Position numbers and translations under genes: made by a program. From a virus, in the IMG/VR virus record IMGVR_UViG_3300032223_002784, positions 1-64,000 of that record: DNA of 64,000 nt. The stretch is one strand, 5' to 3'. Position 1 is the stretch's first letter. Every line of letters starts with the position of its first letter. The notes beneath the pieces were generated by a model, which searched no databases, was not told where the DNA came from, and saw nothing but the letters and a program-made list of their open reading frames with translations. Positions 3,287 to 15,968 of this stretch are shown in pieces.

Positions 3287-3498
3287 TCTTCTATCGCCTC
3301 TTGTTCAGGTTCTTTTGTATTTAGATTCTCCCCGTCAGGAGCAGTAACCGCACTGATTGCATAGTATGGGTCTAATTCATTAAAATCCAATAGCTCTAGC
3401 CCCATGCTTTCAGCAAGTTCATATGCTTTTTCATGGTCTTCTGCTTCTACCTCTATATTAGTATAAAGGGTCTTTGTTACTTCAATTAAAAATTTCAT
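3283..3498 (-). CDS. hypothetical protein, DpnD/PcfM-like
   Basis: Pattern F-x-I-E-V...IEVEAED-x-E-x-A-x-E-x-A typical of this small phage family. Confidence 0.55.
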   Translation of the reverse strand: MKFLIEVTKTLYTNIEVEAEDHEKAYELAESMGLELLDFNELDPYYAISAVTAPDGENLNTKEPEQEAIEE

Positions 3499-3689
3499 TG
3501 TTCTGGTTCCGCCCTAGTGTCTGGTGATCTTAGGTAAAATGACATTACCATTAGTTCCCCGCAAAAATGACAGGTAGGAGTTTCATCTATCTGTTTACTC
3601 AAATTAGAATTCATCTCGCCACCGCACTTACAAGTAAACTCATATGTGTGCAAATAGCTTTCCTGTTTTTCGCTCATTTTTCGCTCCAA
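3495..3689 (-). CDS. zinc-ribbon protein
   Basis: YEFTCKCG...PTCHFCG; start probably at the internal MSEK. Confidence 0.6.
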   Translation of the reverse strand: MERKMSEKQESYLHTYEFTCKCGGEMNSNLSKQIDETPTCHFCGELMVMSFYLRSPDTRAEPEQ

Positions 3690-3778
3690 TTTTATAGTTG
3701 GTAATATGAGGGGCAGAGAAGACAGTGCTTTGGACGAGCACTCCCCTCATATCTTTACCTGTCCATGACCAATGTTAT

Positions 3779-4177
3779 TTAGAAGGGTGTGTTACCCGAA
3801 GTATCCCAGACATCATCTGAGCTATTGATTACTCGTGCAGGACTGGAGCTTTTAACATCTGTAAGGCCTACTGAGGTAGCCTTAATTTCAACTACAGAAC
3901 GTTTTGAGCCAGTCTTATCTTCAAACTGACGCTCTCGTGCCTTGCCTAGGATTTGAACGCCAGAGCCCTTTTGGAGCGTGTTGTGCCACTTATCAGCAAG
4001 GTTTCCCCATACTTCAATGTTCCAACCTGACGTATCCTTGTTTACCCAATTGCCCGAAGCATCTTGAGTCCGTTCGTTTGTAACAACCCGAAACTTCAAC
4101 AGATTTCCTGTTGAAAAAGTTTTAAATTCGGGATCTGATGCGAGATTTCCTCGCAGTACCATTTCTGGATTTGGCAT
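3779..4177 (-). CDS. ssb: single-stranded DNA-binding protein (bacterial OB-fold type)
   Basis: LRGNLASDPE, WGNLA, LQKG...G, acidic tail ending in PF. Confidence 0.92.
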   Translation of the reverse strand: MPNPEMVLRGNLASDPEFKTFSTGNLLKFRVVTNERTQDASGNWVNKDTSGWNIEVWGNLADKWHNTLQKGSGVQILGKARERQFEDKTGSKRSVVEIKATSVGLTDVKSSSPARVINSSDDVWDTSGNTPF

Positions 4178-4250
4178 ATCTTTTTCCTTTTCTAGTCGTA
4201 GTAGGACTTTTTAGTCCCGCATTTCAAAGGCTTTCTGCCCTTGAATTCTT

Positions 4251-4280
4251 ATTGTATCACTCTTGTTCTTCATCTGTCAA
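4251..4280 (-). promoter_or_regulatory. SigA-type promoter for ssb
   Basis: TTGACA-N18-TACAAT. Confidence 0.75.
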
Positions 4281-4607
4281 GGGGACAGGCCATTTTTCCC
4301 AATATGGAATACCTTGATCATCATAATCAGAGCCAAGTTTATCTAAGATTTCTTCATTATCTTGCATCACTTCTTTTATAAATGAATCAGATATATTTCC
4401 TTTTGCAGGTACAACAGATCTCCCTGGTGTATATTTTACATGCACTATGTCATGCTTTGGAAGTCCTGTTAAGGCAAAATTAGCTTTATCTTCTACTTCT
4501 GTTAGGCTGTTGCCCATCCCGCCCAACTTATATTTTCCAAAAACTAAATCAAATCTCCATTTTTCCGCATGCATATAATATGTTATTATTACTTCTTTTT
4601 CGCTCAT
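4257..4607 (-). CDS. hypothetical protein
   Basis: ORF track entry; start at MSEKEV gives ATGA coupling to an upstream 24-aa ORF. Confidence 0.6.
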   Translation of the reverse strand: MSEKEVIITYYMHAEKWRFDLVFGKYKLGGMGNSLTEVEDKANFALTGLPKHDIVHVKYTPGRSVVPAKGNISDSFIKEVMQDNEEILDKLGSDYDDQGIPYWEKWPVPLTDEEQE

Positions 4608-8466: not shown

Positions 8467-9012
8467 TTATCTTGACCTTATATTCTTACTTTGTTTAACA
8501 ATTTGAAATGGACCTGCCGTATATGGACTAAGTTTCTCTGCAATTTCTAACGCTTTTTCTACAGTAGCACCTGTATGCAAAGCCCCCACAGCAAATGGTG
8601 CACCCGAACCAACACCATAAATGCCTGTTTGATCCATTAAAACACTAAAATCATCGCTTATGTTGAATAGTTCTCCATCTACAGCCAAAAGAATTTCAAA
8701 TCCAGAATCTTTATCTTCTTTATCAAGCTTATATCCATTTTCTTCAAGTGCTTCTTTCATGGAAGGCACAACATCTGTAATCATATACTTATAAAGATTT
8801 TTTCTTTGTGATGCATTTGGCATTGGTGGAATCCATAGATGCATAAAAATATCACATGCTGCTACATCACCAGCCCCGCCAAGTAAATAGCCGTTGTTAT
8901 TAATAATTTTTGCCATTTGTGGATGAATATGTTTGTTTGTTCCTGCAGTTACTAGACTATCAGCACCCATAATGACATGTCCGTTTTTAACTACACCCAC
9001 AATTGTTGTCAT
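8467..9012 (-). CDS. HslV/proteasome-beta-like Ntn hydrolase
   Basis: N-terminal M-T-T nucleophile, GADS, K, GGAGD, GVGSGAPFAVGAL. Confidence 0.88.
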   Translation of the reverse strand: MTTIVGVVKNGHVIMGADSLVTAGTNKHIHPQMAKIINNNGYLLGGAGDVAACDIFMHLWIPPMPNASQRKNLYKYMITDVVPSMKEALEENGYKLDKEDKDSGFEILLAVDGELFNISDDFSVLMDQTGIYGVGSGAPFAVGALHTGATVEKALEIAEKLSPYTAGPFQIVKQSKNIRSR

Positions 9013-11309: not shown

Positions 11310-11945
11310 TTAAAGTTTTGGAATTAGTGGAGCACTGAAAGCTCCGCCCCAAATTGACTTTTTCATTTCTGCTTTTTCATCTGCTGGAGTTTCTTTTGCA
11401 GCTTCTTCTTTAGATTCTGCTTCATCCGCAGCTTTACCCATGCAATCGCAAAGACTCATAGCCTTACCGCAATCTGCACATGTATCTGCTTTAGCAATTT
11501 CATCTGCCTTTTCAAGCTCTTCAGTTACTTCATCAGATGATGCTGCTTTTTCAACTTTCTCAGCTGGTAGTGTTTGACCACACTCTGAGCAAGTTCCTGC
11601 CTTAGCAATGTTAACAGTATCTGCTACCGCCAAATCCTCTGAAGTTGGAGCAATTGCTGCGCCTTCTGCTGGAAATGTCTCGTTTGTAGGTACTGGACCT
11701 TCTGGTGCATCTGTAACTGATTGATCGCCAGCAGGTGCTGTTGCACCACTGATTACCTTTGTTACTGCAATATCACCCTGTGGATCTGGTTCTGTTGTAT
11801 TTTCCATTGTATTACCTCCGTCCCTTACATAATTTTCAACGCTTCTTTCGTCACGCTCTTCATTAATTGAAGATGAAGTTCCAATGGCCTTTGTAAGAGC
11901 ATCTTTTACATCATCTATAAATTTATTAATCTCTTGTGTATTCAT
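11310..11945 (-). CDS. acidic low-complexity protein with CxxC motifs (possible internal head protein)
   Basis: Repeated [ILVM]-x-K-[AS] sites; C-terminal SIWGGAF. Confidence 0.7.
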   Translation of the reverse strand: MNTQEINKFIDDVKDALTKAIGTSSSINEERDERSVENYVRDGGNTMENTTEPDPQGDIAVTKVISGATAPAGDQSVTDAPEGPVPTNETFPAEGAAIAPTSEDLAVADTVNIAKAGTCSECGQTLPAEKVEKAASSDEVTEELEKADEIAKADTCADCGKAMSLCDCMGKAADEAESKEEAAKETPADEKAEMKKSIWGGAFSAPLIPKL

Positions 11946-12854: not shown

Positions 12855-13295
12855 CTATGGCTTTAAGGTCGCTGTCAATTGCCATTGCCAAAAATTATGC
12901 TTGTCTAATCTATCAGCAAGAAAATTAACTAATCCTTGTTCGTCTAACTTGTTTGCATTATCGCATGCTCTTTTTAGCATAGCAATAACCACAATATTTG
13001 TTGAAGATAATTCTTGTAGCATTTGTTTGGCGGATATGTCCGAACTATTATTAGTAATTAAATCACTATTGTGACTCCATGTTTCTAATCCAAATGGTGC
13101 TTTAAATCCAAGTTTTCTCATGTTTTCTGAAATTGGATCAATTGATTCATAAACATCTGAATAAATTTTTAAAAGAAATTTATGGTATTGTGGAAAATTA
13201 GATCCTTCAACATTCCAATGATACCCATGTGATTGAATATACATTTTAACTACCATTGATTGTAGTTTAATTAAATCTTGTTCTAACTCATTCAT
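12855..13295 (-). CDS. dps: Dps / ferritin-like DNA protection protein
   Basis: HGYHWNVEGSNFPQYH...IDPISENMRKLG...H-x2-W-x-WQL. Confidence 0.92.
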   Translation of the reverse strand: MNELEQDLIKLQSMVVKMYIQSHGYHWNVEGSNFPQYHKFLLKIYSDVYESIDPISENMRKLGFKAPFGLETWSHNSDLITNNSSDISAKQMLQELSSTNIVVIAMLKRACDNANKLDEQGLVNFLADRLDKHNFWQWQLTATLKP

Positions 13296-14368: not shown

Positions 14369-15388
14369 TTATTGGTTTGAGCTACCCTTTGGGCTAGATG
14401 AATTACCATATCCTACTGATGGCTTGCCATCATGTTGTGGAGGGCTATTATAAGTAGATTGCCACCCAGTATCCCCTTCAATTGAGCCATAGTTTGTACC
14501 AGACATCGCATCACCTAGTGGCAGAAATATTCCGTCCCATATAGATGTTGAATCTTTTGTTGGAGTAGGATTTGCTGACTTAGTTACATCTGGTTGATTT
14601 ACCGCAATTGCATTCATAGCTTCCTGTGCATGTTCTTTGGTTGTATAACATCCAATTACCTGCCCTGTACCTGCCTTTAGGATTGCATAGCCACCTTGAC
14701 AGTCTGGAACATTAAATTCAATTTTAAATCCATATCCACCAGATAGAATATCTTTTTCAATTTTATTTTCTTTATTTACTATGGCACGAGACCAGGCATA
14801 ACCTGCATCTCCGCCCCAAGCATTCCACATAATTTTTCCATGTGATGGCTTGTCCCAATCTTTACCCTTTTTATCAACTTCATGACGTGAAAAGAAAGAA
14901 TACATTCTTTTAACTGTATCAAGGGACATTGATCTTCCTGCAACAATATCACTTGCACGACCCCAACCTACAGGAGTTCCTGCACCTGTTGCCATACCAG
15001 CATCTCTCCACTTTAACGCACGACGTGCTGCTGCTTTCATGCCTGCGTTTGGTTGATAACCGCCGTCTGATTTTTTGACGGGAATACAATTAGGAACAGT
15101 TTTGCCATCTTGATCTTTAGTCCCTGCGTATTCATATCCATCCCAGCAAGGTCCTTGACCTTTATCAATACATGATGTGCATTTTTCTGTATCTGAAATA
15201 TAATGATGATCATTTCCTAGATCATCACATCCACAAGTCATACACTTTTTAACATCTTTAACATTAGCATATAATGCAGCAAGTTGATCTTGTGCTTTCT
15301 TTTTAGATGGATGAGTTCCAACCACTTTACCAGTATTAGTTGCAATTACTGCAAATTTATCTCCAACTTGTTTAATATTATATGGCAT
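14369..15388 (-). CDS. multi-module hypothetical protein (probable virion/head-associated)
   Basis: Duplicated module (VVGTHPSKKKAQDQLAALYAN / VIGCYTTKEHAQEAMNAIAVN); PCWDGY...VPNC module; TVKRMYSFFSRH...WGGDAG module. Confidence 0.7.
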   Translation of the reverse strand: MPYNIKQVGDKFAVIATNTGKVVGTHPSKKKAQDQLAALYANVKDVKKCMTCGCDDLGNDHHYISDTEKCTSCIDKGQGPCWDGYEYAGTKDQDGKTVPNCIPVKKSDGGYQPNAGMKAAARRALKWRDAGMATGAGTPVGWGRASDIVAGRSMSLDTVKRMYSFFSRHEVDKKGKDWDKPSHGKIMWNAWGGDAGYAWSRAIVNKENKIEKDILSGGYGFKIEFNVPDCQGGYAILKAGTGQVIGCYTTKEHAQEAMNAIAVNQPDVTKSANPTPTKDSTSIWDGIFLPLGDAMSGTNYGSIEGDTGWQSTYNSPPQHDGKPSVGYGNSSSPKGSSNQ

Positions 15389-15873
15389 TATTGCTCCTTA
15401 TCTGTTTTAATTATATCACTAACTTTACGAGATTTAATACTATTATTAGGTATTACCTCTGCTGCAGGCTTAGTTCCTGCCTTTCTAAACCTAAGAGACT
15501 CCCACAAAGCGTGGGGTAAAGTATGAATGCCGTAGTGTGTTCTATGATGATTTGTGCATAATACTTCAAGATTTCCTGGACTTTCCAGCCATTCAGCAAA
15601 TTCTTGGTCATTTGTAAAATGTAAGCCAAAATACTCTTCTATTTTATGCTTATCAGCATTTGGTATTTGACTAAATTCTACATGTGTGTGGTGTAATTCT
15701 GGTTGACCTCCACATAAATCATCATTAATGACACATTTCCAAAGTCCCGCCTTTTTAATCTTTTTTTTAGCTGCAATAAAGAATTTATAGTTTGGGTCTT
15801 TTTCTCGTGGATCATGTTCTGGAATATGTGCCAGAATTGAAAAAGTCATATTTTGATCATGTGCATCTGTCAT
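15388..15873 (-). CDS. HNH-like (His-Me finger) protein
   Basis: C-x5-C...ELHH...NLEVLCTNHH; start moved to MTDAHD because the track start lies inside tRNA-Gly. Confidence 0.65.
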   Translation of the reverse strand: MTDAHDQNMTFSILAHIPEHDPREKDPNYKFFIAAKKKIKKAGLWKCVINDDLCGGQPELHHTHVEFSQIPNADKHKIEEYFGLHFTNDQEFAEWLESPGNLEVLCTNHHRTHYGIHTLPHALWESLRFRKAGTKPAAEVIPNNSIKSRKVSDIIKTDKEQ

Positions 15874-15894
15874 TATAAATCTATTATACATTAT

Positions 15895-15968
15895 TGGAGC
15901 GAATAGCGGGAATTGAACCCGCACATTAACCTTGGCAAGGTTACGCACTACCACTATGCAATATTCGC
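15895..15968 (-). tRNA. tRNA-Gly(GCC)
   Basis: TAACC-TTGCCAA-GGTTA anticodon arm, GCGAATA acceptor, encoded CCA. Confidence 0.95.

Follow-up and report, generated by a model that had tools for sequence, protein, structure and literature searches.

A modular phage protein that shares a short tag with the protease-scaffold of its phage: a candidate cargo polyprotein of the viral head

The window analysed here is the first 64 kb of a single phage contig of 91,984 bp, which we treat as a genome of ~92 kb. On the window side, this genome encodes a terminase, a family-A-like DNA polymerase, a primase, a helicase, and UvsX, along with a WhiB regulator, GroES, thioredoxin, Dps, and Hsp20; beyond the window lie genes for a portal, an S78 protease-scaffold fusion, an HK97-fold capsid protein, and siphovirus tail proteins. 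The protease has 37–39% identity with its counterparts in Streptomyces phages (family Stanwilliamsviridae). A G+C content of 36–37%, taken together with the WhiB gene, points to a low-GC aquatic actinobacterium as the probable host. A megablast search of 8.3 kb against 50,697 phage records returned a tRNA as its sole match and no close cultured relative.

The gene that concerns us encodes a protein that we call P0001 (Table 1). It follows the terminase gene, near the genes for Hsp20, Dps, GroES, and WhiB and outside the head module, and the block running from terminase through P0001, Hsp20, and Dps to open reading frame (ORF) 11310 is kept in dozens of IMG/VR contigs. A ribosome-binding site (AGGAG, 15394-15398) lies 5 nt upstream of its ATG, which overlaps the TAA of an HNH-like ORF directly upstream (15388-15954, minus strand). 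This HNH-like ORF is found in just 20 of 70 related loci and is therefore probably a mobile insertion; since its listed GTG start overlaps a tRNA-Gly (15895-15968), its true start is probably internal.

Table 1. The P0001 gene, its modules and junctions, and the two other tagged proteins of the genome (window coordinates unless marked; arrows, here and in the text, stand at proposed or known cuts).
Feature	Residues	Position	Strand	Observation
P0001, whole ORF		14369..15388	-	339 aa, 36.4 kDa, pI 8.6
Module A1, DUF2188-like	1-42	15263..15388	-	phrog_3684, E 2e-10
Junction 1, VKDVKK↓C	K48	15245..15262	-	K48 invariant in 26 orthologues
Module Z, CxxCxC..HH metal knuckle	49-69	15182..15244	-	C49, C52, C54, H61, and H62 invariant
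Module W, CxxC + PCWDGY..VPNC	70-103	15080..15181	-	phrog_9737, 28131, 36547, 4359
Junction 2, VKK↓S	K106	15071..15079	-	K105 and K106 invariant; break point at residues 104-116
R domain	107-208	14765..15070	-	phrog_2859, E 2e-29
Junction 3, KIEK↓D	K212	14753..14764	-	K212 invariant; AF2 low-confidence linker 209-218
Module A2, DUF2188-like	213-264	14597..14752	-	AF2: beta strands then helix
Junction 4, QPDVTK↓S	K270	14579..14596	-	K270 in at least 90% of sequences; break point at residues 268-277
T tag, SIWDGIFLPLG	282-292	14513..14545	-	one of three W.G.F in the genome
Conserved C-terminal tail	311-339	14372..14458	-	..YNSPPQ.DGK..VGYGN..SN; predicted disordered
Second tagged protein		11310..11945	-	211 aa, pI 4.2, two CxxC pairs; ends MKK↓SIWGGAF + 8 aa
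P0003, S78 protease + coiled-coil scaffold fusion		genome 66038-67435	-	465 aa; outside the window, 51 kb away

A sequence-only reading of this ORF had described small modules strung together by a recurrent Lys motif, and translation of the minus strand bears out both its list of elements and their order: MPY..ALYAN, VKK↓C (K48), CxxCxC..HH, IDK↓G (K76), PCWDGY..VPNC, VKK↓S (K106), the RMYSFFSRH/WGGDAG domain, IEK↓D (K212), a second A, VTK↓S (K270), and SIWDGIF (W284). That list stopped at SIWDGIF and missed the conserved tail beyond it, which is near-invariant across architectures and forms the constant, most conserved end of the family. Every P0001-family architecture ends with the tag, then a variable stretch, then this tail, which is specific to the family and found in no other protein of the genome or of related loci.

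The two A modules are homologous, as had been proposed (29% identity over 48 aa; pairwise E 2e-9), and their alignment takes in the terminal DV-x-K of each. A1 is predicted to form three beta strands followed by a helix (AF2 pLDDT ~80). A2 matches Pfam PF09954 (DUF2188) at E 4.8e-4 with 20.7 bits, short of the gathering cut-off of 22 bits, and some close relatives of P0001 bear a precomputed PF09954 match. Module Z occurs alone or duplicated among relatives; AF2 confidence for it is low, as expected because the metal is absent from the model. Module W is probably a Cys4 unit that includes the IDK↓G sequence. Each module matches a different PHROG of unknown function. No Pfam match above cut-off and no NCBIfam match was found for P0001, Foldseek found no PDB match for the whole model or for the R domain at E <= 0.001, PDB sequences searched by profile likewise gave none, and the ESM Atlas yielded unnamed viral clusters only. 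AF2, run with 26 orthologues, delimits folded units at residues 3-40, 67-103, 115-208, and 215-264, with low-confidence stretches at 43-68 (the metal site), 209-218, and 263-339.

A metagenomic search restricted to a near-length range gave 5,370 relatives of P0001 at E <= 1e-3, and module shuffling was mapped on the best 120 of them with P0001 as the query. Among these 120, A1 or R may be missing, the order may be permuted, Z or W may be duplicated, and some proteins carry extra modules (DUF5872 or additional W-x-G-x-F peptides). Break points cluster at query residues 46-50, 104-116, 204-222, and 268-282. The proposal that modules are exchanged with boundaries at the Lys motif thus stands for four of the five sites originally put forward and fails for IDK↓G. 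The further expectation that predicted domain boundaries would fall on the Lys-motif linkers is matched by AF2 linkers at residues 41-48, 104-114, 209-218, and 265 onwards.

Conservation at the junctions is high: the P1 Lys is invariant in 26 orthologues at K48, K76, K105/106, and K212, and K270 is present in at least 90% of sequences. Immediately upstream of Z (C.TCGC), P1 is Lys in 63 of 63 distinct contexts, and P3 is mostly Val or Ile regardless of which module precedes. IDK↓G was rejected as a junction, the string K-C-x-x-C-x-x-K-GQGPCW being constant in 55/55 contexts. Because this Cys4 string is constant and the Cys4 unit of W moves without the CxxCxC-HH part (Z), the boundary between Z and W is better placed at TEK↓C, ~7 residues upstream of IDK↓G. 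In ~10 related loci, a pair of neighbouring genes takes the place of the single one, with natural fission at the R–A2 or the DUF5872–A2 junction; some of these pairs have overlapping frames, which frameshifts or sequencing errors could also explain. The sequence [VILM]-x-K also occurs three times within folded domains of P0001 (K173, K206, and K238) and therefore does not by itself define a site; the conserved junction Lys may be no more than the residue with which each module ends.

P0001 has its tag in common with the protease-scaffold. Among all six-frame ORFs of the ~92-kb genome, W.G.F occurs three times, in each case within SIW.G.F. Besides P0001, the bearers are ORF 11310-11945 and the 465-aa protease-scaffold, both of which carry it at the C-terminus. 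The expected number of SIW.G.F in the 123 non-overlapping ORFs is 0.006, against the three observed, and at least one appeared in just 11 of 2000 shuffled controls. The likeness of SIWDGIF to SIWGGAF of ORF 11310-11945, noticed at the outset, is accordingly beyond chance, with SIWGGAF lying at a C-terminus; and SIWxGxF holds up as a motif common to P0001, ORF 11310-11945, and the protease-scaffold, and kept in relatives. Because it also ends the protease-scaffold fusion, capsid targeting is its natural reading.

In other genomes, the tag ends the protease-scaffold of nine metagenomic viruses and of two Streptomyces phages (38–74% identity). In the latter two, Jay2Jay and Comrade, it reads S-x-W-G-G-x-F-L, and the strict pattern WGGxF finds the protease only and no tagged cargo. 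We also collected 80 viral contigs with a 123-aa stand-alone R protein as the query: of their 80 R-domain ORFs, 66 have W-x-G-x-F or W-x-[GDN]-[ST]-x-F at the end, with a Lys 0–2 residues before the Trp in 65 of these 66. Where the gene is split at the R–A2 junction, the upstream half has a tag of its own at or near its C-terminus (e.g. ..IAK↓EIWNGAF..); the unsplit P0001 has none at that junction and bears the distal tag alone. A loading signal would be expected at roughly one copy per polypeptide, and this is the pattern seen in split versus unsplit genes. The tag of the P0001 family is not C-terminal, with ~47 residues, including the conserved tail, beyond it, and the W+4 and W+5 forms of the tag show no co-variation between cargo and protease of the same genome (five genomes).

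The second tagged protein, ORF 11310-11945, is a candidate for further cargo or for a scaffold-like protein. All 34 of its homologues in related loci end in K-S-[ILV]-W-G-G-A-F or a near variant, and it has many [ILVM]-x-K-A sites. The neighbouring Dps (12855-13295, minus strand), which belongs to the same gene block as P0001, and Hsp20 were considered as tagged cargo and rejected, as neither carries the tag.

The third bearer, P0003, matches PF04586 (Peptidase_S78; E 3.7e-7, above the cut-off), PF14550, and, below its cut-off, TIGR01543; its C-terminus is ..IQK↓SIWQGHF + 8 aa. In an alignment of 12 protease-scaffold sequences, an [IV]-x-K↓[SA] motif like that of the junctions recurs at conserved positions: SI[QET]K stands at the end of the protease domain (12/12), [IV]EK↓[AS] where the scaffold helices begin (most of the 12), and ETA-x-[KRQ]KS ~25 residues from the C-terminus (12/12); in the low-GC clade, [IV]-[QK]-K↓S immediately precedes the tag. 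In HK97, the type system for S78 proteases, the capsid protein gp5 is cut at F-N-K103↓S104, as mature capsid chains in the PDB begin at residue 104, and this makes a hydrophobic-x-Lys specificity of the S78 protease of our genome plausible by analogy. The P0001 junctions VKK↓C, VKK↓S, IEK↓D, and VTK↓S resemble the HK97 site by motif similarity only.

Several further features of these proteins deserve mention. Many tags, and HK97 gp4 too, end in hydrophobic-x-K at the extreme C-terminus, which is how a protease product would look. The capsid protein (genome 64870-66006, minus strand) begins with MSNELL[QE]K, kept as far as Streptomyces phages, and the 20–40 residues that follow vary; the start may be a short propeptide ending in L-x-K. 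In the HK97 regions compared (4028-4402 and 3348-4025), the scaffold domain of gp5 contains ..LIK-SWDGKQGTF.. and gp4 ends in ..SIK-SFPSNLGK, which are loosely like a K-S-x-W-x-G-x-F tag, a likeness that could be coincidence. The window also encodes an HslV-like peptidase (8467-9012, minus strand; phrog_1040, E 5e-33), with no HslU partner seen; as a second phage protease, it could in principle process tagged proteins.

The R domain is the module with the widest distribution (3451 clusters at 50% identity, in proteins of 79–1,453 aa). Folded alone, it is predicted with confidence to be a five-helix bundle (AF2 pLDDT 92.5); in a VIA-align comparison with 48,161 chains, its best Z was 5.0, a score that helical bundles reach generically. 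It has the motifs SRHEVDK and WGGD, and its invariant Arg, His, Asp, and Lys make an enzymatic or ligand-binding role possible. Fusion partners were counted by Pfam among 46 long R proteins: R is joined to Phage_Mu_F (5), Peptidase_S78 (4), portal families (4), and Phage_capsid (1), as well as to ADP-ribosyltransferase (3), Hva1_TUDOR (5), DUF5872 (4), and ferritin (2). Structural matches of R in BFVD carry the names prohead protease, portal, XkdF, Dps, and ParB; fusions of R with ferritin or Dps in other phages thus number two of the 46 by Pfam and one BFVD match. In Vibrio phage 1.250.O, a gene situated between a MuF-like gene and the scaffold and capsid genes is protease-like and has R at its N-terminus; the MuF and protease identities of these two genes are our reading of their sequences, and of the tblastn match to gene 21 we treated only the R part as reliable, not the alignment of residues 212-334 with the protease half. 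In Haloarcula virus HSTV-1, module W lies under the gene for the head maturation protease.

The reading that we prefer, at a little better than even odds (a probability of roughly 0.55), is that P0001 is a tag-loaded cargo polyprotein of the head that the prohead protease cuts into pieces. Its W-x-G-x-F tag would be a copy of the C-terminal peptide of the phage's own S78 protease-scaffold and, for that reason, would bind the inner face of the assembling HK97-fold procapsid at the scaffold's site; the chain of mini-domains would be co-assembled into the prohead, and the same tag would bring in the protease. The protease would cut exposed [I/V/L]-x-K linker sites (K48, ~K69, K106, K212, and K270) and release from the tag about five small folded units of 2–12 kDa, and cuts at AVKK↓S and IQK↓S would likewise sever the scaffold from its tail. 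At least the basic, 12-kDa R domain, if not every folded piece, would stay beside the DNA as an internal protein of the head, and the pieces may reach the host upon infection. The data show the modular build, the shuffling at Lys sites, the shared and conserved tag, its number of about one per polypeptide, and the fusions with head proteins elsewhere; packaging, cleavage, and what becomes of the pieces and what they do are inferred, and not all with equal assurance: capsid loading is the best-supported part, with odds at or somewhat beyond those of the reading as a whole, and cleavage at the Lys sites is plausible, at odds a shade below even. Counting against this reading, the P0001 gene lies amid stress and chaperone genes and not among head genes, and the tag is non-terminal in the P0001 family, its W+4 and W+5 forms not co-varying; so do the [VILM]-x-K sequences inside folded domains, the chance that the Lys merely closes each module, and the strict WGGxF form being confined to the protease in the cultured Streptomyces relatives.

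P0001 might instead be packaged via its tag and stay uncleaved, as an intact multi-domain internal head or assembly protein in which the Lys residues mark module ends or belong to flexible, Lys-rich linkers of an AT-rich genome. We regard this as unlikely, if well worth weighing: the terminal DV-x-K is part of the duplicated A module and could be inherited with it, and the motif is also found inside folded domains. However, the P1 Lys and P3 Val/Ile are kept whatever the neighbouring modules, as the 63 contexts before Z illustrate; the same motif recurs at the domain boundaries of the protease-scaffold, a known class of protease substrate; and HK97 is cut at F-N-K↓S.

It is less probable still that W-x-G-x-F docks another common partner—the protease itself (at a substrate exosite, or as a tail that inhibits its own protein), a chaperone of the phage, or some factor of degradation or of the host—and that P0001 is no virion protein but one regulated through this partner. 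The sole tag bearer of known role is the protease-scaffold, and in HK97, lambda, P2, and herpesviruses the C-terminus of the protease or scaffold contacts the shell; the cargo modules R and W also recur in fusions with portals, proteases, MuF, and capsid proteins. What speaks for such a partner is that the P0001 gene sits among genes for Hsp20, Dps, GroES, thioredoxin, and the HslV-like peptidase, with GroES- and Hsp20-like genes adjacent, and that many tags end in [hydrophobic]-x-K at the extreme C-terminus, as a protease product would. Finally, a chance resemblance or annotation artefact—a hypothetical protein with low-complexity Lys linkers and a coincidental motif—is very improbable, the shortness of the motifs and the lack of Pfam matches above cut-off and of NCBIfam matches notwithstanding, and is already contradicted by the excess of SIW.G.F over expectation, the retention of the tag in hundreds of proteins across lineages, and thousands of homologues with conserved synteny.

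A broader reading, which we offer only tentatively, is that a large lineage of tailed phages, aquatic relatives of Stanwilliamsviridae that infect actinobacteria, combines portable, encapsulin-like loading with [IV]-x-K polyprotein cutting. Any protein ending in K-[SA]-x-W-x-G-x(1,2)-F would then be loaded via the scaffold's docking site of the HK97-fold prohead, and the S78 protease would cut polyproteins of interchangeable mini-domains into a mixture of small proteins delivered with the DNA.

If P0001 is cargo of the kind we prefer, a simple sequence rule, namely a C-terminal W-x-G-x-F tag after a Lys site, would tell which proteins occupy the head interior in an uncultured and very abundant group of freshwater or marine actinophages, and a location there would be assigned to several widespread viral domains: R, the CWDGY..VPNC unit, DUF5872, and the DUF2188-like units. 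HK97-type prohead proteases would be able to act as polyprotein-processing enzymes for cargo, and a ready tag would be at hand for loading HK97-fold capsids with foreign proteins. The long-standing question of how siphophages that have no T4-like core choose their internal proteins becomes testable. Were the broader reading true, phage heads would have a natural protein-packaging code that is programmable, and the system might form an evolutionary bridge from scaffold tails to the targeting peptides of encapsulins.

Our literature search found no description of a system of tagged, modular cargo polyproteins. The arrangement resembles T4 cargo with capsid-targeting sequences (CTS), the scaffold tails of HK97 and herpesviruses, encapsulin peptides, and polyvalent proteins, and fits none of these classes. 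In T4, the internal proteins IPI-III and Alt share an N-terminal CTS, which binds the scaffold core and is removed by the prohead protease gp21, an S77 protease that cuts at [LI]-x-E; the proteins stay in the head and are ejected (PMC7411985). As with IPI-III and Alt, one short peptide is shared here by several otherwise unrelated proteins. Unlike the CTS, the tag is C-terminal or internal and the same as the tail of the scaffold itself; an S78 protease would cut, presumably at [IVL]-x-K; and there are five or six cargo modules per polypeptide. Pfam, PHROG, and NCBIfam indicate no homology between P0001 and IPI-III or Alt.

Protease and scaffold share C-termini in lambda (C/Nu3), P2 (gpO), and herpesviruses (UL26/UL26.5). 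In HK97, the C-terminal tail of the gp4 protease reportedly directs the protease inside the HK97-fold shell, and in systems of the HK97, lambda, P2, and herpesvirus type a maturation cut just upstream of the tail releases the rest. The S78 protease family and a Lys at P1 are common to HK97 and our phage; in contrast to all of these systems, in which the tail is on the protease and scaffold only, the tail here is also on unrelated accessory proteins.

Polyvalent proteins of phages and conjugative elements have 2–15 domains per polypeptide, travel inside the head, and are believed to be split up into individual units; they are large, with signature domains (MuF, MPTase peptidase, ART, and nucleases), and often self-processing (Iyer et al. 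2017, PMC5512222). P0001 is like them in having five or six modules in one polypeptide that are recombined in relatives, but it has only 339 aa and would depend on the prohead protease. Pfam finds none of the polyvalent signature domains in P0001, and MuF and ART are fused to R only in other phages.

Encapsulins take up diverse cargo through a short C-terminal peptide, which attaches to the inside of their HK97-fold shell. Here, too, a short peptide is found on diverse proteins, R is fused to ferritin or Dps in related phages, and the peptide would bind the shell; the peptide sequence is a different one, however, the shell is the DNA-filled head of a virus, and a protease is involved. CpmB of the staphylococcal element SaPI1 copies the C-terminal capsid-binding motif of the scaffold of phage 80alpha to enter the procapsid. 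Whereas CpmB is the scaffold of a satellite that redirects capsid size, P0001 is the proposed cargo of the phage itself.
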